In this document: in pieces, positions 5,873-35,474 of the stretch
How positions within the stretch are numbered: position 1 is the first letter of the stretch
How the letters are laid out: every line of letters starts with the position of its first letter
Source of the DNA: Minisyncoccota bacterium
GTDB taxonomy: Bacteria > Patescibacteriota > Minisyncoccia > Phycocordibacterales > UBA9973
Direction of reading: 5' to 3'
Length of the DNA stretch: 48,368 nt
Assembly (NCBI GenBank): GCA_017992305.1
Contig: JAGOOX010000001.1
Location: forward strand, 1 to 48,368
Position numbers and translations under genes: made by a program
Notes under the pieces: model-generated
The model's database searches: none
What the model was told of the DNA's origin: nothing
What the model saw: only the letters and a program-made list of their open reading frames with translations

Positions 5873-5901
5873 TTGACTTTTAGGTTCGGTTTTGCTATAC
5901 T
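5873..5901 (+). promoter_or_regulatory. Promoter TTGACT-17 nt-TATACT (TGc extended -10)
   Basis: TTGACT 5873-5878, TATACT 5896-5901. It sits in the 3' arm of the second post-secA hairpin. Confidence 0.6.
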
Positions 5902-26845: not shown

Positions 26846-27253
26846 ATGATCAAGCAACAAATTATAAAACTTTATAAAAATACAAATAATAGAATTTTGT
26901 TTTTTATAGCTTTATTAATGACAAGCTTTGTTCAACCAGTTCGCGCTGCTGGACTAGTGCCTTGCGAGGGTGTTGATGATTGTAATTTTGGCAAACTTGT
27001 TGAGCTGTTAAATAATATTGCCAGTTTTGTAATGTTTAGATTGCCAATATTGCTATTGGTAATTGTTTTTGCATGGAACGGGGTAATGCTAATTTATAAA
27101 AGCGACCGCGCGGGTACATTAAAAACTATTAAAAAAAATATGCTAAACGTTTTATGGGGTTATTTACTAGTGGTTGGTGCATATATAATTGTTAAAACAT
27201 TTATTATGCTGATTGCTGGTCAAGAGTTATCATTTAAGGTATTCTTTAATTAA
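26846..27253 (+). CDS. TrbC/VirB2-like 'T4SS pilin' family small membrane protein, paralogue 1
   Basis: Signal peptide ending VRA-AG, GLVPCEGVDDCNF motif, then two hydrophobic helices separated by a charged loop (KSDRAGTLKTIKK). Confidence 0.55.
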   Translation: MIKQQIIKLYKNTNNRILFFIALLMTSFVQPVRAAGLVPCEGVDDCNFGKLVELLNNIASFVMFRLPILLLVIVFAWNGVMLIYKSDRAGTLKTIKKNMLNVLWGYLLVVGAYIIVKTFIMLIAGQELSFKVFFN

Positions 27254-27254
27254 G

Positions 27255-27803
27255 ATGAAAAAAATATTCAATAAAAATTTAAAATTTGTAACTATTTTTA
27301 GCATAGTTTTTTTGGCTTTGTTTGTGTTTGGCGGGCATCGTGTTTTAGCTCAATTTAATACTGCAAACGACCCCTTTTTTGACCCGCTCAATGATACAAA
27401 AAAACCGGTAGACCTAAAACTTACAAACACCAATACTCCACCTACAGGGGGTAACCCTACTGGGGGCGCAGGGGGTAACCCGGCCCAAGGTGGTGCAGGT
27501 GGTCCCGGGACTGAAAAAAGTGGTCTACAAATAACCTTAACAAATCCCTTAAAATCAAATAGTTTAGAGGATTTTATACAAATAGTTTTAGGTGTTATTT
27601 TAAAGTTTTTAATACCTATTTTGGCTATATTATTTATGTACACTGGCTTTAAGTTAATTATAGCCAAAGGCGAGCCGGCGGCTTTGAAGGCAGCAAAGCA
27701 AGACTTTTTAAACCTAGTTATTGGTTCAGTATTAATACTGGGCGCATGGACGTTTGGTAACATTATTATGAACACATTAAAAGAAGTGGGTATTTTAAAT
27801 TAA
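27255..27803 (+). CDS. TrbC/VirB2-like 'T4SS pilin' family protein, paralogue 2, with a Gly/Pro-rich linker
   Basis: Start ATG 27255 (MKKIFNK...), signal peptide ...VLA-Q, PPTGGNPTGGAGGNPAQGGAGGPG linker, then LTNPLKSNSLEDFI...two TM helices with the loop AKGEPAALKAAKQD. Confidence 0.6.
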   Translation: MKKIFNKNLKFVTIFSIVFLALFVFGGHRVLAQFNTANDPFFDPLNDTKKPVDLKLTNTNTPPTGGNPTGGAGGNPAQGGAGGPGTEKSGLQITLTNPLKSNSLEDFIQIVLGVILKFLIPILAILFMYTGFKLIIAKGEPAALKAAKQDFLNLVIGSVLILGAWTFGNIIMNTLKEVGILN

Positions 27804-27829
27804 ATAGTTAAATAACTAATTGCATTAAT

Positions 27830-28216
27830 ATGAAAAATATAACAAATAAAATTTTAACAATTGTTGCCCTGGCGTTTGCGCCTCTTTCGGTTTTTGCTCA
27901 AAATAGAAGCGCTTCGTTGTGTGGGCCTATTAAATATTCACAATCATTGCAAAGCTATTTGTGCGAGGCATACAGGCTAGTTGGTTATTATTTAATACCT
28001 TTATTGACACTGGCTGCACTGGGTTGGTTTATGTGGAACGCAATAATGTTAATTAAAAATGCAAATGTTGAAAAACTTCGCGGTGAATACAAAATTGCCA
28101 TGATGTGGGGCTTGGTAGCACTGTTTGTTATGGTTTCGGTTTGGGGTATTGTGGGCATAATGGGTGGTATTGTTGGTACTAATACATCGGTTATTCCACA
28201 AATTCGTTACAAATAG
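27830..28216 (+). CDS. TrbC/VirB2-like pilin family protein, paralogue 3
   Basis: Signal peptide ...SVFA-Q, two TM helices, loop KNANVEKLRGEYK. Confidence 0.55.
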   Translation: MKNITNKILTIVALAFAPLSVFAQNRSASLCGPIKYSQSLQSYLCEAYRLVGYYLIPLLTLAALGWFMWNAIMLIKNANVEKLRGEYKIAMMWGLVALFVMVSVWGIVGIMGGIVGTNTSVIPQIRYK

Positions 28217-28291
28217 TTGACTTTTTATATTAAATATATGGTACAATATGTTTATAAAAGGTTTTAATTTTTTATTAGTAATTAATTGTTT

Positions 28292-28690
28292 ATGAAAAAA
28301 GTATTATTGATTTTAGTTTCAGCTCTAACCCCATTGGTTGCATCTGCCCAATTTATAAATTTGGGTGGTGCGCCTAATTTTGGTTACGTTAGTAGCGGTG
28401 TTGACCAATTGTTTCGTATTGCGACAACGTATGTTATACCTACGTTAACTCTATTAGCATCAGCCTTCTTTATTTGGGGTGTTATTGGTTACATTAGAGC
28501 TGACACCAAAGAAAACAAAGAAAAGTCAAGACACGCCCTAGTACAAGGCATTATTGCGCTAGCTGTTATTGTGTCAGCTTGGGGTATTGTTAGATTGCTA
28601 CAAAACGTAGCTGGTGTTACGCCTTCGACTACAACAAACACAATTTGTCCACCTGGATACACACCTGTTGGAGCTATTTGTAGGCCTTAA
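28292..28690 (+). CDS. TrbC/VirB2-like pilin family protein, paralogue 4
   Basis: Start ATG 28292 (MKKVLLIL...), signal peptide ...VASA-Q, two TM helices, loop RADTKENKEKSRH, Cys-containing tail. Confidence 0.55.
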   Translation: MKKVLLILVSALTPLVASAQFINLGGAPNFGYVSSGVDQLFRIATTYVIPTLTLLASAFFIWGVIGYIRADTKENKEKSRHALVQGIIALAVIVSAWGIVRLLQNVAGVTPSTTTNTICPPGYTPVGAICRP

Positions 28691-28694
28691 ACAT

Positions 28695-29006
28695 ATGTTT
28701 ACAATTGCCTATGCAGCTGAAACCGGCGAAATAGTTAACGCTGTTTTTACAAAAATTGTTGACCCTGTTGTAATTTTCGGTTTCGTTGTTGCCTTTTTCT
28801 ACTTTATGTGGGGGATAGTGGCATTCATTCGTAATGCCGACAACTCAGCCAAACGCGACATTGGCAAACAGCATATTGGTTGGGGTTTAGTAGGATTGTT
28901 GGTAATGTTTAGTTGTTATACAATATTACAAATTATTGTTAATACACTAGATTTGCAATCACCCCCTAACGGGCCTGATTATCGAACAATCAATCAGCGC
29001 CAGTAA
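28695..29006 (+). CDS. TrbC/VirB2-like pilin family protein, paralogue 5 (short leader)
   Basis: Start ATG 28695, 4 nt after the previous stop. Two TM helices, loop RNADNSAKRDIGKQ. Confidence 0.5.
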   Translation: MFTIAYAAETGEIVNAVFTKIVDPVVIFGFVVAFFYFMWGIVAFIRNADNSAKRDIGKQHIGWGLVGLLVMFSCYTILQIIVNTLDLQSPPNGPDYRTINQRQ

Positions 29007-29047: not shown

Positions 29048-29677
29048 CTAGAAAAATCTTTTTAGAATCGGCCTACTGTAACCCTTTGTGTGTGTAAACA
29101 CAATTCTTTCGCCAGCTTTGAATTGTTCACCCGGTGTCAATAATAAAGGTATTATCTCGACATTCCCCAATGAGTCAGTTCTTTGTACTTGTTTCAGCCT
29201 AAGACCGTCTTCACCGGTACCAGAAACAATGACTTCTTCATTTGGGCCCAAGCCATCAATTCTATACTGCTGATAAGGTTCAAGGTGGGTAATAAGTCGA
29301 CCACCATTAAATTCAGTATAAGTAGTGTCGGATCGTGTTTGCACAACGTCTCTACTTGCAGTTACTGGATCTCTGTTTAGGTCACTACCTAATAGTTTTT
29401 TAGGTACGAAAATAAGAGAAGGTAAAAGTGCTATTACAAGCAATATTTTACCTCGCAAACTTCTACCCATTTGAAACGCCAGTATTGCTATAAGTAAGGT
29501 AGTGATCGTGAACCAGAAATACCATGTCCATGCCCAAACTTCCCAAACTGAAGGAAAGCTCAGCTTTAGGGCCATTACGGATAAAACAATAATCGCTAGA
29601 CTGGATGTAATTTTAAACTTCCAGTTAGATCCTAAGATATTTTGAATGAAACTCGCTATTAATATAAATGTTCTCAT
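29048..29677 (-). CDS. Membrane protein (3-4 TM) with a beta-rich C-terminal domain; possible NfeD-like partner of the upstream SPFH gene
   Basis: Start moved to ATG 29677 (MRTFILIAS...). Trp-rich TM region, soluble C-terminal ~110 aa. Confidence 0.5.
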   Translation of the reverse strand: MRTFILIASFIQNILGSNWKFKITSSLAIIVLSVMALKLSFPSVWEVWAWTWYFWFTITTLLIAILAFQMGRSLRGKILLVIALLPSLIFVPKKLLGSDLNRDPVTASRDVVQTRSDTTYTEFNGGRLITHLEPYQQYRIDGLGPNEEVIVSGTGEDGLRLKQVQRTDSLGNVEIIPLLLTPGEQFKAGERIVFTHTKGYSRPILKRFF

Positions 29678-29781
29678 GATTTTTATTTCTAACTTAATTA
29701 TAGCATATACTACGAAAAAAGTCAAATAAAAAAGCCCTATTTGATTAGTATCAAATAGGGCTACTCTGGGGGATTTTAGTT

Positions 29782-31299
29782 TTACGGTCTGTTTTTCATT
29801 GCTTCGGCAACCTCTTTTAGGGCTTGAACAATTAATACTGTTGATACGGAATTGTCTGCAGGTCCTGAATTACCAGGCGCTGCTACATTATTATTATTAT
29901 CTTTAATAATAACAGTTCCTTTAGCGCCAGCATACTGCTTGGCTACCTCAAGAGCATATTCTGCATCAATAATAATTTGTGCATCAACGCCATTTGCCTT
30001 GGCCGTCTTTAAGAGATTACTTAAGGCTTTTACTTCAACTACATTCATTTCTTTGGCGCCTTTGGCTTTAGCTAAGAGGTCCATTTTGGTGAGCATTGCC
30101 GCGGCCTTGTTCAAAAGAGTGTTCTTGCCAGCCTCTTCTTTACCCTTAACTTTTATGTTGTAGGCTTCACCTTCAGATACTCTTTTACTAGTATAAAGGT
30201 CTTTATCAGCGTCTATTGCCTCCTTTTCTTTTTTGGCTTTAGCAATTGAAATATTGATTTGAGCTTCATGCATATCTTTAGGTGCATGCAGGGCTGAAAC
30301 TGATGAAGTACGAATATTTAAACCAAGTTCCTGGCTTTCATTAAGCTTGCTTACTTTTTTTAATAATTCATAAGACATTGCGCCAACGCGTAATAATGCT
30401 GCCAATTTACCATAAGGGAACTTTTTAAAAATTTCGTTTAGTACAGCCTTTGTATTAGCAACCATTTGACTGATTATGTACTCGCGTCTTTTTTCTTCGG
30501 TTTGACCCTCAACGTTTTTCCAAAACAGTTCAATGTTGTGCTGCCATTTAGTATCATCTTGAATGTCAATATCTATTACCAAGTTAACTTCGGGGAACAG
30601 GGTTGTTTGAGTATGCATAACAGCATCCTTTTCCTCTTGTTCCCATACTTTTTTTGCTATTTCAATCTCGGTATTGTTTGGCTGGGCATCCTCGTACGCA
30701 CCTCTAGTTATACCAGCTAAGACTTCTCTTTTTCTAGCAATAGCAACAGAATACATTTCAATAAAATCTTTTTTGTAGGATTTTGATTGGTCAGCGGTCG
30801 ATGTTCCGATTGCAAAATCAGGATTTGCACCACCGGTTTTGTTAAATAAAATCTCTATGTTTTTATTACTTCGAGATTCTACTGTAAAGATGGGGTTATG
30901 AATATATGGACCACCTCTTCTAAAGTGGCCAACTATTTTACCCTCAACTGTTAGTATTCCTACGTGGTCAACTGGAACTTCCCGTATCTCTTGTTTGAAT
31001 AACGTAAGGAACAAAGCAATTTTTGATGTCGTATAATAAATGTTTTTATAATAGTCATCGATAAACACAAACGGTATGAAACCGTCGTCAGATTGATTTA
31101 TTGTTTGATTCTTCTGCACTGGATTGTAAATAACTCCCTGGCTTGCCAGTATCATCCAAATTAGAATCGGGATGAAAATTGCAAGAGTGCAGCCAACAAT
31201 TACGAGCTCTGTTTTTTCTATGAATGTTAGGGAACAGATCACCCCAGCTATGATTACTATCAATACGATAACAAGCATGTTTTTCGTTTTTATCCTCAT
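29782..31299 (-). CDS. SPFH/band-7 (flotillin-like) membrane protein, 505 aa
   Basis: Two N-terminal TM helices. VPVDHVGILTVEGKIVGHFRRGGPYIHNPIF matches the start of the SPFH domain. LGLNIRTSSVSALHAPKDMHEAQ...EGEA plus an Ala/Lys-rich coiled-coil tail. Confidence 0.55.
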   Translation of the reverse strand: MRIKTKNMLVIVLIVIIAGVICSLTFIEKTELVIVGCTLAIFIPILIWMILASQGVIYNPVQKNQTINQSDDGFIPFVFIDDYYKNIYYTTSKIALFLTLFKQEIREVPVDHVGILTVEGKIVGHFRRGGPYIHNPIFTVESRSNKNIEILFNKTGGANPDFAIGTSTADQSKSYKKDFIEMYSVAIARKREVLAGITRGAYEDAQPNNTEIEIAKKVWEQEEKDAVMHTQTTLFPEVNLVIDIDIQDDTKWQHNIELFWKNVEGQTEEKRREYIISQMVANTKAVLNEIFKKFPYGKLAALLRVGAMSYELLKKVSKLNESQELGLNIRTSSVSALHAPKDMHEAQINISIAKAKKEKEAIDADKDLYTSKRVSEGEAYNIKVKGKEEAGKNTLLNKAAAMLTKMDLLAKAKGAKEMNVVEVKALSNLLKTAKANGVDAQIIIDAEYALEVAKQYAGAKGTVIIKDNNNNVAAPGNSGPADNSVSTVLIVQALKEVAEAMKNRP

Positions 31300-31325
31300 T
31301 TTTAATGTTCTATATTTCAGTCTAC

Positions 31326-31354
31326 ATTATAGCAAACTTTATATAAAAAGTCAA
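31326..31354 (-). promoter_or_regulatory. Promoter (minus strand) TTGACT-17 nt-TATAAT for the SPFH gene, directly after a terminator hairpin
   Basis: Plus-strand agtcaa 31349-31354 and attata 31326-31331. Hairpin aaaaaccctt..aagggattttt lies just upstream on the minus strand. Confidence 0.65.
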
Positions 31355-31436
31355 GTTAAAAATCCCTTATAAACAAGGGTTTTTTATACAAAAACAGCCC
31401 CTTTTTTAAGGGGCTGTAGTATGCGTAAAGAACTTT

Positions 31437-32645
31437 TTAGCTAGATGTGCTTGAACTGTTGTTGCTAGTCTGCTGCATGCGTCTTCTGATGTCAGCGGCT
31501 CTTTCGTTGGAGTTCTGAATCAGTTGTACATGCTCTATGGCTCTTTCAAAAACGAATGAATCGCTTTTTGAGAAGAACTTTAACAATACAGGTATCGCCT
31601 CAATGAAGAAAAACATAAAGAACACTGCCCAAATGATTGGGTTTCTGCCAGCGATGTCGTTTAACACGTCTAACATAAATGCCAAACCATTTACCGGCCT
31701 TGCTAATACTTTTTCAATCAGGACTTGTTCGGCTGTGTCAATATCGGCCAGGTCAGCTTTTGCTTTTACTCGGGCTTTTTCAAGCTCTTTGGTGTAAACA
31801 TCAACTGATTGAGCTGCAACAGATTCTGTTTTGGCAGCATTTCTTTCAGCTATGAGGTTCTCCTTCAGTGCTTCGTAGCGCGAAATTGTTTCGCGAATAC
31901 CTTTTGCAACAGATCCATCACCAGCTCGGCCAGATACTCCACCTGGGCCTTTGATCTCGTAGGGGAGTTTTGAACTCCAAAACTTGATTGAGTCATCGGT
32001 TGCAGTGATCTTTTCCTCGTAGCTTTGAGCTAGAGTAGCCAGGTCAGCTTGCATTTTTCCAAGGGCGTCCTCAGCCTTTTTTACAGTGTTTACTACTGAG
32101 TCTTTTTGATGTTTGAGTGAATCAGATATGGCAGCGGTTTCGCTGTCCTGACGTATCTTAATTTCAGCCGTTATTTCCGGCTTAAACATAATCACCCTGA
32201 TCATCTCACTGTTAAAATAACAGATGAAGAAAATCATTACAAAACGAAGTAATAGCCAACCAAAGCCGGCACTGGAATTCTTTTCGATGTGTTCATGATC
32301 GAAAGTTCCTTCCTTCATGGCTTTGGCTACTTTTCGAACTGAGATCACATCCATCTGCTGTAGAATTGATCGTTCAAGCATTAGCATAATCATGAACCAA
32401 AATGGTCCCACGAGGTAACCCCATGGACCCATTGGTATGAACCAGGCTACTGATGCAAGCACTGCTGATACTAATGCAACCACGAATACTACAATACCTG
32501 CAGTAATACGTTTTTGCTTGTCATCGGGTAAGGTTTTTTTGAAAGCGGCAAGGGTGCTTCCACCACATGCTGCAAAAAACAGGCTGATAGGGCTCGAGTG
32601 ATGAGCCTCTAAAGAGTTGAGGTATTGGTTATCTGTGTTGTTCAT
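31437..32645 (-). CDS. DUF4407-like membrane protein (TM pairs flanking a long coiled coil)
   Basis: N-terminal FFAACGGSTLAAFKKTLPDDKQKRITAGIVVF...ERSILQQMD pattern, central coiled coil, C-terminal TM (IIWAVFFMFFFIEAIPVLLKF). Confidence 0.55.
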   Translation of the reverse strand: MNNTDNQYLNSLEAHHSSPISLFFAACGGSTLAAFKKTLPDDKQKRITAGIVVFVVALVSAVLASVAWFIPMGPWGYLVGPFWFMIMLMLERSILQQMDVISVRKVAKAMKEGTFDHEHIEKNSSAGFGWLLLRFVMIFFICYFNSEMIRVIMFKPEITAEIKIRQDSETAAISDSLKHQKDSVVNTVKKAEDALGKMQADLATLAQSYEEKITATDDSIKFWSSKLPYEIKGPGGVSGRAGDGSVAKGIRETISRYEALKENLIAERNAAKTESVAAQSVDVYTKELEKARVKAKADLADIDTAEQVLIEKVLARPVNGLAFMLDVLNDIAGRNPIIWAVFFMFFFIEAIPVLLKFFSKSDSFVFERAIEHVQLIQNSNERAADIRRRMQQTSNNSSSTSS

Positions 32646-32674
32646 CTTTTTTGTGTTTTTTAAATCCTGCTATA

Positions 32675-32703
32675 ATGATAGCATATAATAAATAAAAAGT
32701 CAA
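32675..32703 (-). promoter_or_regulatory. Promoter (minus strand) TTGACT-17 nt-TATCAT for the DUF4407-like gene
   Basis: Plus-strand agtcaa 32698-32703 and atgata 32675-32680. Preceded on the minus strand by the hairpin aaaagctctt..aagggcttttt. Confidence 0.6.
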
Positions 32704-32784
32704 GCTAAAAAGCCCTTATCTATAAGAGCTTTTTGGGCAAAAGAAAAGGGTTTTTGTACAAAAAATGCAACAAAACCCCTTGTA

Positions 32785-32994
32785 TTAAATAGTAACTTTA
32801 AATATGAGCGAAAGTATTTTAATTATTGCCCATATTAAATATGCACTACTGACCCATATGACTAAGGCAAAAACCATTTCTTTTTTTTTGCCTTTGCCTA
32901 GTAATAGGCCAATTGTTCCGACTTTGAACATTTCAAATTTATTTTTTTTATTCTCGATAAAGTCGCTATCTAGAATAATTTCTTTATCTTTCAT
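32785..32994 (-). CDS. Small membrane protein (69 aa)
   Basis: Strong dedicated promoter. C-terminal TM FALVIWVSSAYLIWAIIKILSLIF. Confidence 0.5.
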   Translation of the reverse strand: MKDKEIILDSDFIENKKNKFEMFKVGTIGLLLGKGKKKEMVFALVIWVSSAYLIWAIIKILSLIFKVTI

Positions 32995-33015
32995 CTCTGA
33001 CTAATTACGTATTAC

Positions 33016-33044
33016 ATATTAGCATACTAAATAGCCTTTGTCAA
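33016..33044 (-). promoter_or_regulatory. Promoter (minus strand) TTGACA-17 nt-TAATAT (TGc extended)
   Basis: Plus-strand tgtcaa 33039-33044 and atatta 33016-33021. Confidence 0.6.
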
Positions 33045-33107
33045 TATCTGTAATAAGTCAAAAACTGAATTTATAGTTTGTTTAGTTAATGTTTATAAAA
33101 CGTTTTA

Positions 33108-33116
33108 TGTTATAAT
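33108..33116 (+). promoter_or_regulatory. Extended -10 (TGtTATAAT) 6 nt upstream of ATG 33123; leaderless geometry
   Basis: TG 33108-33109, TATAAT 33111-33116. Confidence 0.55.
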
Positions 33117-33122
33117 ATTTTT

Positions 33123-35009
33123 ATGGAAAGTTTTAACCCTAATGAGTCTGATAATAATTTAGACAATTACTTAGATAAAAAATTAAATTCTGAAAAAAGC
33201 CCAGAACATGAGCCCGAAGTTCTTTTTAAAGATAAAAATTTTTTAGGTAAAACTAGAGAAATTATTTCATCTATTGGTGAGGCTTTTGGTGATATGCCAG
33301 TGCTTATGAAGGCGACCCTTATATCTACCGTCGCTTTTTTTACGGCACTTCCTGTTGTTGAACAGGGGAAACGTATGTATGCTGATAATGAGTATGATAA
33401 AGCCAAAGAGATGTTGCATGAATATGTAATAAACAACACTCCTGAAACTCCAACCCCATTTCAGGTTGATCAAGAAAAATACGACAAAGCAGTAGAGATG
33501 TTTGGTCAGGATAATTTATGGTGGCTTGAAGAAGCCGAGACCGATAATACAGATAAGGAAAATTTCGACTATGACACTGCAAGTATAAACAGGGGGATAA
33601 AACATTATGAAACAAAGAGGGGTGTTTTTGACTATGTATTCAAATCATCATATTCAATACCTAGGTTTTTTAGTGAAAACCACTATCTTCAAGACGCAAA
33701 AGACATTCAGGATCGAATAAACAAATTACCTAAGTATTCAGAAAACCAAACAGGTAAAAGTCTTGATTCAACAACCATTTCGTATGACTCTGATGCTGTT
33801 GTAGGGTTTAGGGACCGAGAAAATAAAAACAAATTTGATACGTTACGAAAAGAAACTTTTAAAAAGATAATTTATGAAACGTACCCCAAGAATTGGTTTA
33901 ATGGAGACATTAGTAGTATTGTTATGCATAATACCGGTGATCCAGATACCTCATATAATTACGGCAGTCCAGTTGTTGCCGCGGCACAAATGTCTAGAAA
34001 TAATCAAAAGATGGAGTTTTTTGATTATATGAATGAATTTGAAAATAATCCAGAATGGATGTTTAGTGTTCTGTCTCATGAGTCAGCTCACGCCAATGAC
34101 TGGGGCGCAATTGAGGGGCTAAATAAAAACGAGCGTCTTGATTTTTTAACATCTTTATCTGAAAGAATTTATGCACCTGATCGTTTTATAAGTTCTTATG
34201 TTGAAGATAAAATTGTAAATGAAAATTTAAAAGATAGATTATATAATAGGTCTGTTGAGTATTGGGCTGAAATTTGTGGCGAGTATTTTGCTAATGGTAA
34301 GGGCAACCTTTCGCCAAAAGACGTCAAAATTATTGATAAAATTATCAAAATAAAGGACACTGATTTCAGTATTGACGAAGCGTTGTCTAGGCGATTTGAA
34401 ATTATTCACAAAGATATTTATAAGGTTGGGCCCGAAAAAATGAAGTTACTTGATGACTTTAAGGCTATAATTAAATTACAAAAATTATCTAATGATTTTA
34501 GTCAAAAGTTTTATGATTTTATAAAAAAGAATAAAAATGTCGATAACGGAATAAATTATATTTTTAATGAAAAAAGTAAAAGGTATGAGTTGATAGAAGG
34601 CAATTCTGATACTGTTCTTGCGCAGGAGTGTATTGATGCAATAAATGCCAATCACGAACTATTTAAAAATAAAAAAATTGAATATGTGTTTGACCCCATT
34701 TCTAAACAGTTTAACCGTACTGGTGATAGTTTAAGTTTGGCCAAGTTTAAACAGTATGAGACTTTCATGACAGAACATGAAGACGTAATTCGTGATCTTC
34801 AATATTACATAGACGAAATCACTGATACATATGTTTTAAAGGGTCCAACCATAAATATGGCTTTGGCTAAAGAATATCTGCGATTAAGAAATGCTGAACA
34901 AGAATCATGGCAAAGAATCGTAAATAAGGTTAAAAAATTTAACATAAAAAACAAAGGATCTTCTGAGCTTAAACCATACAGAGGCTATGGTATGTATTCA
35001 AAATATTAA
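33123..35009 (+). CDS. Membrane-anchored HExxH zinc-metalloprotease-like protein (628 aa)
   Basis: TM MKATLISTVAFFTALPVV. HExxH in VLSHESAHANDW. Downstream VEYWAEICGEYFA (gluzincin-type third ligand, as in the anthrax-LF-like/MtfA-like families). Asn/Lys-rich C-terminal third. Confidence 0.6.
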   Translation: MESFNPNESDNNLDNYLDKKLNSEKSPEHEPEVLFKDKNFLGKTREIISSIGEAFGDMPVLMKATLISTVAFFTALPVVEQGKRMYADNEYDKAKEMLHEYVINNTPETPTPFQVDQEKYDKAVEMFGQDNLWWLEEAETDNTDKENFDYDTASINRGIKHYETKRGVFDYVFKSSYSIPRFFSENHYLQDAKDIQDRINKLPKYSENQTGKSLDSTTISYDSDAVVGFRDRENKNKFDTLRKETFKKIIYETYPKNWFNGDISSIVMHNTGDPDTSYNYGSPVVAAAQMSRNNQKMEFFDYMNEFENNPEWMFSVLSHESAHANDWGAIEGLNKNERLDFLTSLSERIYAPDRFISSYVEDKIVNENLKDRLYNRSVEYWAEICGEYFANGKGNLSPKDVKIIDKIIKIKDTDFSIDEALSRRFEIIHKDIYKVGPEKMKLLDDFKAIIKLQKLSNDFSQKFYDFIKKNKNVDNGINYIFNEKSKRYELIEGNSDTVLAQECIDAINANHELFKNKKIEYVFDPISKQFNRTGDSLSLAKFKQYETFMTEHEDVIRDLQYYIDEITDTYVLKGPTINMALAKEYLRLRNAEQESWQRIVNKVKKFNIKNKGSSELKPYRGYGMYSKY

Positions 35010-35010
35010 T

Positions 35011-35391
35011 ATGCAGATAATTGAATTTGTAAAACAACAAAATGAAAAGTTTACCTTTTACCAAGAAGGGGAGGTTTGGGTTTTAAAATTTAAAAATAAA
35101 GAAAAACAAAAACAAGCTGATGAATTTTTTATTAATTTACTTCAGGACTTAAAATTGCGGTCAATATATAAATACGTGCCAGTATTTAATGAATCTGAAG
35201 TTTCTGCCTTTATGGCTTATTTAAAAAAACAAGGTTTTACTATTAGGTGTCGTGATACTGAATTAGAAGAAAAACTTAAACATGCTTTGGTAATAATTAC
35301 CAAAAACAACCCACAAGATATTTCAGATCTGGTTAATGAAATGACTTATCACGATCAATTATTGATCGCCGATAAAATCGCTAAAGCGTAA
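35011..35391 (+). CDS. Hypothetical 126-aa protein, tightly coupled to the metalloprotease gene
   Basis: ATG 35011 lies one nucleotide after the upstream TAA (35007-35009). No motif recognised. Confidence 0.55.
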   Translation: MQIIEFVKQQNEKFTFYQEGEVWVLKFKNKEKQKQADEFFINLLQDLKLRSIYKYVPVFNESEVSAFMAYLKKQGFTIRCRDTELEEKLKHALVIITKNNPQDISDLVNEMTYHDQLLIADKIAKA

Positions 35392-35401
35392 ACCTAAATT
35401 G

Positions 35402-35474
35402 TCCGCCCGGTTGGATTCGAACCAACGACCCTCCGCTTAAGAGGCGGGTGCTCTACCAACTGAGCTACGGGCGG
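35402..35474 (-). tRNA. tRNA-Lys (anticodon CTT)
   Basis: The reverse complement folds as a cloverleaf: acceptor CCGCCCG/CGGGCGG, D-arm GCTCAGTTGGTAGAGC, anticodon loop CTCTTAA, T-arm GTTGGTTCGAATCCAAC. Confidence 0.9.

Follow-up and report, generated by a model that had tools for sequence, protein, structure and literature searches.

A very divergent SPFH-like protein encoded beside a small membrane protein of non-NfeD type, and a separate DUF4407 gene, in a genome of Patescibacteria

Introduction

The locus described here raises a simple question: do three neighboring genes for membrane proteins make up one system? It lies in a 48,368-nucleotide stretch of DNA from Minisyncoccota bacterium (GTDB lineage Bacteria; Patescibacteriota; Minisyncoccia; Phycocordibacterales; UBA9973), that is, positions 1 to 48,368 of the forward strand of contig JAGOOX010000001.1 (GenBank assembly GCA_017992305.1). 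This stretch is referred to below as the window. The genome from which it comes amounts to 0.61 Mb in 52 contigs and is 88% complete. Three consecutive open reading frames (ORFs) occupy the minus strand of the window at positions 31437–32645 (402 amino acids), 29782–31299 (505 amino acids), and 29048–29725. In the initial annotation, which was made from the letters alone, they were read as genes for a DUF4407-like protein, an SPFH/band-7 protein, and a 209-amino-acid protein that could be a divergent analogue of NfeD; it was speculated that the three form a membrane-associated module acting in membrane integrity, stress, or the response to infection.

The presence of three consecutive minus-strand genes for membrane proteins was confirmed at these positions, and the first two family assignments hold as well, but the three genes do not behave as a module. 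In our assessment, the locus probably holds a lineage-restricted, divergent SPFH scaffold together with a small downstream membrane partner of non-NfeD type, and, separately from them, a solo DUF4407 gene that is part of a strain-variable segment. Loci and genomes of the relatives with which the window was compared are designated below by L and G numbers, respectively, and individual proteins by P numbers.

Results

The 505-amino-acid protein and its family

Taken by itself, the 505-amino-acid protein (positions 29782–31299, minus strand) scores under every curated threshold. It gave no match in Pfam, NCBIfam, PADLOC, or PHROG, and a phmmer search against PDB sequences returned nothing significant. 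Its membership becomes visible through the profile of its own family, which is small: two relatives were found in an index of 5.8 billion proteins, and a HMMER search among 1.84 billion proteins yielded eight representatives with E ≤ 0.001. A profile of these eight sequences (A1) matched HflC among solved structures at an E value of 0.001, and four of the eight members weakly matched Band_7. Three more homologues came from a search with A1 in 151 genomes of the taxonomic family; strong matches (E ≤ 1e-8) were present in 5 of the 151 genomes. The same profile also recovered canonical, 292-amino-acid Band_7 proteins in relatives (Band_7 E value of 1.5e-29). Two members of the family, from L011 (489 amino acids) and L013 (367 amino acids), scored 24.8 and 25.0 bits, respectively, against Band_7, both above the Pfam gathering cut-off of 23.6. 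An enlarged profile of 10 sequences (A2) was compared with PDB sequences and matched QmcA (E value of 9.2e-9), HflC (6.7e-7), and HflK (1.9e-6), and, more weakly, flotillin-1/2 and PH stomatin, the top matches all being SPFH proteins. When A2 was aligned with canonical SPFH proteins of the relatives using hhalign, an E value of 3e-5 was obtained. The SPFH/band-7 assignment of the initial annotation holds, but became apparent only with a profile of the family.

Hydrophobic helices are located in the N-terminal part of the protein, at residues 9–27 and 39–57. The SPFH domain carries large inserts; the Ala/Lys/Glu-rich region that follows (residues ~345–470) can be aligned with coiled coils in HflC, QmcA, and flotillin, and a “KGTxI” strand near the C-terminus is conserved in the family. 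One or more N-terminal hydrophobic anchors, a long helical region rich in Ala, Lys, and Glu, and a conserved C-terminal strand are common to the 505-amino-acid protein and to QmcA/YbbK (PDB 8z5g), HflK/HflC (7vhp), and FloT/YqiK, to which the family profile is significantly similar in a region that comprises the second half of the SPFH domain plus the coiled coil after it. In length, the protein is close to the flotillin-like proteins. Unlike known SPFH cage proteins, the family combines the large inserts with a number of transmembrane (TM) helices that varies from zero to five, P0002 having none, and it could not be placed in a known SPFH subfamily. Its members come only from a few genera within a single family of Patescibacteria. 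Judged by these profile comparisons, the 505-amino-acid protein is best regarded as a very divergent SPFH member, and its family as a new, divergent, and previously unannotated SPFH subfamily in Patescibacteria that appears to have a partner other than NfeD.

The small membrane protein encoded downstream

The likeliest start codon of the third gene is the ATG at position 29677, within the ORF at 29048–29725, because a strong promoter fills positions 29697–29725, and because the near-identical homologue P0009 is 209 amino acids long. The gene thus extends over positions 29048–29677 of the minus strand, and its 209-amino-acid product will be called g209. It is 97% identical to P0009 and 51% identical to P0010, and belongs to a tiny family (alignment A4). 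An AlphaFold2 (AF2) model obtained with A4 (pLDDT of 63) shows helices at residues 2–15, 19–40, 42–48, 52–69, and 73–97, a linker of about 30 residues (~98–128) that is of low confidence or disordered in the model, and a C-terminal domain of ~80 amino acids with five to six strands at 139–206, where pLDDT values range from 40 to 68. Three hydrophobic helices are present, one of them Trp-rich (the Trp-rich stretch is SVWEVWAWTWYFWF), and the layout matches the NfeD pattern of two to four N-terminal TM helices (here, 19–40, 52–69, and 73–97) followed by a short hydrophilic linker.

NfeD proteins contain three hydrophobic stretches and an all-beta domain (PMC2636767). Like g209, members of this family (PF01957; YbbJ, YuaF, YqiJ, and PH0471/PH1510, the operon partners of SPFH1/2/5) begin with several hydrophobic helices and continue through a hydrophilic linker into a small C-terminal domain that is all-beta (PMC2636767), and both are encoded beside an SPFH gene. 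The likeness did not extend to a match of hidden Markov models, profiles, or folds, and g209 is the larger protein. There was no match to PF01957 in nine g209 family members scanned, namely the window protein and eight relatives (E ≤ 0.1–1). Direct scans of g209 against Pfam, NCBIfam, PADLOC, and PHROGs gave nothing significant, and neither did the A4 profile match anything among PDB sequences. A Foldseek search of the PDB with the g209 model, in which the beta domain is poorly modeled, had a best E value of 0.19 and contained no NfeD or OB-fold match. When A4 was compared by hhalign with A6, an alignment built from five genuine NfeD sequences of other Patescibacteria, the probability was 0.3%. 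Canonical NfeD was found in none of the 151 genomes of the class, and in 5 of the 301 genomes of the phylum (L059–L063). At all five of these loci, an SPFH-type gene follows NfeD after 1–33 nucleotides; L059 encodes a ClpP-NfeD fusion, and L063 a flotillin-like protein. The position of g209 is different: its gene follows the SPFH gene and has a terminator and a promoter of its own in front of it, while NfeD is encoded directly upstream in one operon. These comparisons suggest that g209 resembles NfeD in domain layout only and represents a partner of non-NfeD type.

The pair is conserved and under purifying selection

A g209 homologue is encoded directly downstream of the SPFH-like gene at L001, L002, L003, L005/L006, L011 (G004), L012 (G081), L013 (G017), and L047. 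At all loci that extend far enough, in at least three genera, the two genes are neighbors on the same strand, and the pairing persists as the identity of the SPFH-like proteins drops to 19–45%. The proposal that the third gene encodes a divergent NfeD analogue is supported in part: conserved adjacency favors g209 as a partner of the SPFH-like protein, but the searches with PF01957, hhalign, and Foldseek gave no sign of homology to NfeD.

The ratio of non-synonymous to synonymous changes (pN/pS) was 0.05–0.09 for the SPFH-like gene, compared with L002 and L047, and 0.13 for g209, compared with its near-identical counterparts at the same two loci. A value of 0.13 (versus L047) was also obtained for orf69, a small ORF for a 69-amino-acid membrane protein at positions 32785–32994 (minus strand). 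The DUF4407 gene had a pN/pS of 0.45, a value based on 13 changes only. Every gene with a near-identical counterpart is thus real and under purifying selection.

Further away, the pair is part of a 20-kb block that is syntenic throughout the family and reads gyrA, methyltransferase, SBP, five pilins, g209, a variable gene, tRNAs/rbfA, IF-2, and ClpB. The five pilin genes of the window are VirB2/T4SS_pilin-like and form an array at positions 26846–29006 of the plus strand, convergent with g209. Such T4SS_pilin (VirB2-like) genes occur in 150 of the 151 family genomes, mostly with four to eight matches per genome, and the array is thus independent of the pair. Over longer distances, the pair evolves much faster than its neighbors. 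In G101, GyrA is 93% identical to its window counterpart, IF-2 79%, and the pilins 49–67%, while g209 is 25% identical.

The DUF4407 gene lies in a strain-variable segment

The 402-amino-acid protein encoded at 31437–32645 (minus strand) is a clear member of DUF4407: it matches Pfam family PF14362 with an E value of 7.7e-23 and 81.7 bits (cut-off of 31.3), over positions 7–287 of the 297 positions of the model, in agreement with the initial annotation. The gene is single-copy in the genome of the window. PF14362 scored above the cut-off in 9 of the 151 family genomes and in none of six other genomes of the genus. In G081, which contains both DUF4407 and the SPFH-like family, the two are on different contigs. 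Orthologues of the DUF4407 protein that are 53–56% identical to it are encoded singly and at varying chromosomal sites, either between PriA and S21/YbeY, between RNase R and SMC, or near enolase; further orthologues adjoin genes for small secreted proteins or lipoproteins. No profile similarity between DUF4407 and the SPFH-like family was detected by hhalign, a comparison of the DUF4407 profile with the PDB gave coiled-coil noise only, and tblastn searches of phage and plasmid collections produced no match.

Comparison with L002, whose DNA is 96–98% identical to that of the window, defined a segment that varies between strains. In L002, the pilin array, g209, and the SPFH-like gene are directly followed by the gene for tRNA-Lys. 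The blastn break-points place window position 31386 at L002 position 9299 and window position 35395 at L002 position 9270; window positions 31387–35394 (4.0 kb) are replaced by 28 nucleotides in L002. The segment carries the DUF4407 gene, orf69, and, on the plus strand (33123–35391), genes for a 628-amino-acid protein with an HExxH motif and for an overlapping 134-amino-acid partner. One edge of the segment touches the 3' end of tRNA-Lys (CTT), the first of four tRNAs (35401–35474, minus strand). Neither the 628- nor the 134-amino-acid protein had a significant family match in Pfam, NCBIfam, PADLOC, or PHROG scans.

Gene content of the segment differs among the relatives. L001, with an SPFH-like protein 42% identical to that of the window, has homologues of the 628- and 134-amino-acid proteins (43–44% identity) and no DUF4407. 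At L007 (G028, same genus), the 628- and 134-amino-acid genes (92–93% protein identity) and orf69 (90%) are present, and the slot after orf69 that is taken by DUF4407 in the window contains a gene for a 618-amino-acid, five-TM SPFH-like paralogue (P0006, 27% identical). Thus orf69 travels with the 628/134-amino-acid pair and not with DUF4407. The arrangement of the window was found at one other locus, L047, on a contig 98% identical to that of the window, and no other genome searched has a DUF4407 gene adjacent to an SPFH-like gene. Because this adjacency was seen only in the window and at L047, with L002, L001, and L007 lacking it, DUF4407 and SPFH are to be regarded as neighbors in this genome only, and the view of the three genes as one module was abandoned. 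The DUF4407 gene is a solo, strain-variable accessory gene in the lineage of the window, and stands apart from the SPFH/g209 pair.

We also observed a hotspot for cassettes within the otherwise syntenic 20-kb block, in the slot that separates the SPFH-like gene from the tRNA-Lys/rbfA side. When L001, L002, L007, and L047 were compared, close relatives differed in what this slot contains, with four gene contents in all.

The early description of the locus as an accessory island beside pilins and a protease is right only in part, as the pilin array belongs to the syntenic block. A role in stress or infection response received no support. At E ≤ 1, none of the PADLOC-DB families matched any of the six locus proteins, a PHROG scan of the locus proteins gave no hits, and DUF4407 has no homologues in the phage and plasmid collections. 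The same searches did not support any enrichment near defense or mobile genes. Housekeeping genes make up the remaining content of the window, including those for SMC, SecA, DnaE, HisRS, S1, GyrA, IF-2, RbfA, and ClpB.

Promoters and terminators

The terminator-then-promoter units that had been noted at the DUF4407 and SPFH genes are real, and they also precede g209 and orf69: ahead of each of the four genes there is a terminator hairpin followed by a TG-extended promoter resembling TTGACT-17-TATAAT. For g209, the hairpin (29733–29762) is followed by TTGACT-17-TATAAT at 29697–29725. Ahead of the SPFH-like gene, the hairpin is at 31364–31379 and the promoter at 31326–31354. The promoter of DUF4407 is located at 32675–32703 and its terminator at 31394–31417, and orf69 has a promoter of its own at 33016–33044. 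The terminator scan revealed 13 terminator-like sites versus 2.7 expected. Three copies of a ~68-nucleotide terminator-promoter module (TTGACTTTTT-N10-TGCTATAAT) are present at the locus (29671–29738, 31300–31367, and 32649–32716), and are 69–76% identical. The hairpin and promoter of the SPFH-like gene are kept in L002, which lacks everything from there to tRNA-Lys.

We considered whether the shared module marks a regulon and rejected this idea. The same promoter type stands before unrelated stand-alone genes at 5873, 11525, and 12258; the window has six matches to it versus 0.06 expected. Since it precedes unrelated genes as well, it is the ordinary strong promoter of this genome and no regulon mark.

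Discussion

With SPFH homology, conserved adjacency, and purifying selection in hand, a function of the pair can be sketched by analogy with QmcA, HflK/C, flotillin, NfeD, and YdjG/H, from which we infer oligomerization, physical interaction, and a role in organizing the membrane. Like other SPFH proteins, the 505-amino-acid protein would be anchored in the membrane by its N-terminal hydrophobic helices. Through the coiled-coil region and the conserved C-terminal strand it may oligomerize into a ring or cage, which would fence off a patch of membrane. The small protein g209 would then be a membrane partner or client of the SPFH ring, in the way that NfeD is with stomatin/flotillin or YdjG/YdjH with YdjI. 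In Bacillus subtilis, YdjG/YdjH anchor the soluble SPFH protein YdjI to the membrane (PMC8581546). The YdjG/YdjH-YdjI (SamGHI) system resembles the pair in that small integral membrane proteins are encoded beside an SPFH protein (PMC8581546); P0002, which lacks a TM helix, would need a membrane anchor of this sort. The pair differs from that system in that no PspA gene is found near it and most SPFH-like members have TM helices of their own. The DUF4407 gene would have landed beside the pair in the strain of the window and would not be one of its components.

Several findings weigh against this interpretation. The SPFH matches are confined to the C-terminal half of the SPFH domain and to the first coiled coil, and a single-sequence AF2 prediction for the 505-amino-acid protein reached a pLDDT of 35, which is not a confident model. 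Crude topology assignments from hydropathy and the positive-inside rule are inconsistent among family members, and the SPFH domain and the beta domain of g209 may face opposite sides of the membrane. Unlike the genes of the tight NfeD-SPFH operons in other Patescibacteria, the SPFH-like gene and g209 are set apart by a terminator and a second promoter. Because the pair sits in a block that is syntenic throughout the family, its adjacency is partly inherited and is a weaker sign of functional coupling. Finally, three genomes of the genus have a g209-like gene whose upstream neighbor cannot be recognized as SPFH: this neighbor encodes 443 amino acids in G101 (L039, 2256–3587), 330 amino acids in G060 (L040, 120–1112), and 460 amino acids in G084 (L041, 61–1443), and SPFH tests of all three proteins were not significant. 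They could represent SPFH proteins of even greater divergence, or else replacements. In hhalign comparisons, a motif resembling the end of the SPFH domain (“G-x-I...P...A”) aligned colinearly in the 330- and 460-amino-acid proteins, with E values of 0.02–0.07.

Other explanations of the locus were weighed against the same evidence. The small protein could be a true NfeD homologue that has diverged extremely and whose C-terminal domain has the OB fold; the pair would then be a classical SPFH-NfeD system. The succession of helices and five or six strands in the AF2 model is compatible with this, YuaF itself was recognized as NfeD by structure only, at 21% identity (PMC2636767), and replacement by a diverged form would make sense in a class in whose genomes canonical NfeD was not found. 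We nevertheless consider such homology improbable, given the negative family, profile, and fold comparisons described above and a gene order, with an intervening terminator, that is unlike that of canonical operons. In addition, g209-type beta domains (about 80–100 amino acids) and whole proteins (204–261 amino acids) exceed the size of a typical NfeD protein (140–150 amino acids). A single three-gene module for membrane integrity, stress, or anti-phage defense is the explanation to which we give the least credence, and we regard it as very improbable. It is true that the genes for DUF4407, the SPFH-like protein, and g209 are adjacent, on the same strand, preceded by strong promoters of one kind, and all code for membrane proteins; that the arrangement recurs at L047; and that the presence at L007 of an SPFH-like paralogue in place of DUF4407 could hint at interchangeable roles. 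However, L047 represents the same strain lineage, L002, at 98% DNA identity, keeps the pair without DUF4407, and the adjacency is absent from all other genomes searched. Each of the three genes is its own transcription unit, and the PADLOC, PHROG, phage, and plasmid searches were without a match.

A functional tie of the SPFH-like/g209 pair to the VirB2-like pilin array, for which the pair would provide a platform for pilin insertion or for an epibiotic type IV secretion apparatus, appears unlikely to us. In every locus seen, the pair is convergent with the array and directly abuts it, and, like the pilins, the pair has diverged at a far higher rate than the housekeeping genes around it, as the values for GyrA, the pilins, and g209 in G101 show. 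VirB2 arrays have been reported to be important in bacteria of the candidate phyla radiation (bioRxiv 10.1101/2025.01.22.634366), and one study reports that the secretion systems of types IV and VI in Agrobacterium tumefaciens are located in detergent-resistant membranes (PMC8656257). On the other hand, the whole block from gyrA to ClpB is syntenic, so this adjacency, too, is inherited; nearly all family genomes have T4SS_pilin genes, compared with the few that have a strong match to the SPFH-like family; and the pilins and the pair occupy different strands and do not share promoters or terminators. A broader version of this idea strikes us as just as unlikely: the SPFH protein and its fast-evolving partner would be a membrane platform of non-NfeD type that is specific to Patescibacteria and serves the VirB2-like pilins and thereby the interface between epibiont and host, and the neighboring slot would be a hotspot in which strains exchange interchangeable genes for membrane coiled-coil proteins (DUF4407 or SPFH paralogues).

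If the divergent SPFH scaffold with a small non-NfeD partner is the correct interpretation, a very divergent SPFH subfamily is added to bacteria with tiny genomes, which retain few accessory membrane proteins. A false lead is removed at the same time, as there is no DUF4407-SPFH system at this locus. The practical value lies mostly in better annotation and in a small SPFH-partner pair that is open to testing.

As for DUF4407, literature on this family is essentially absent and limited to passing mentions. The relatives of the window protein have in common a Gly-rich motif, YEVKGPGGxSGxxGDGPVAK, located midway along the long coiled coil (residues ~228–246), and several of its glycines are invariant.

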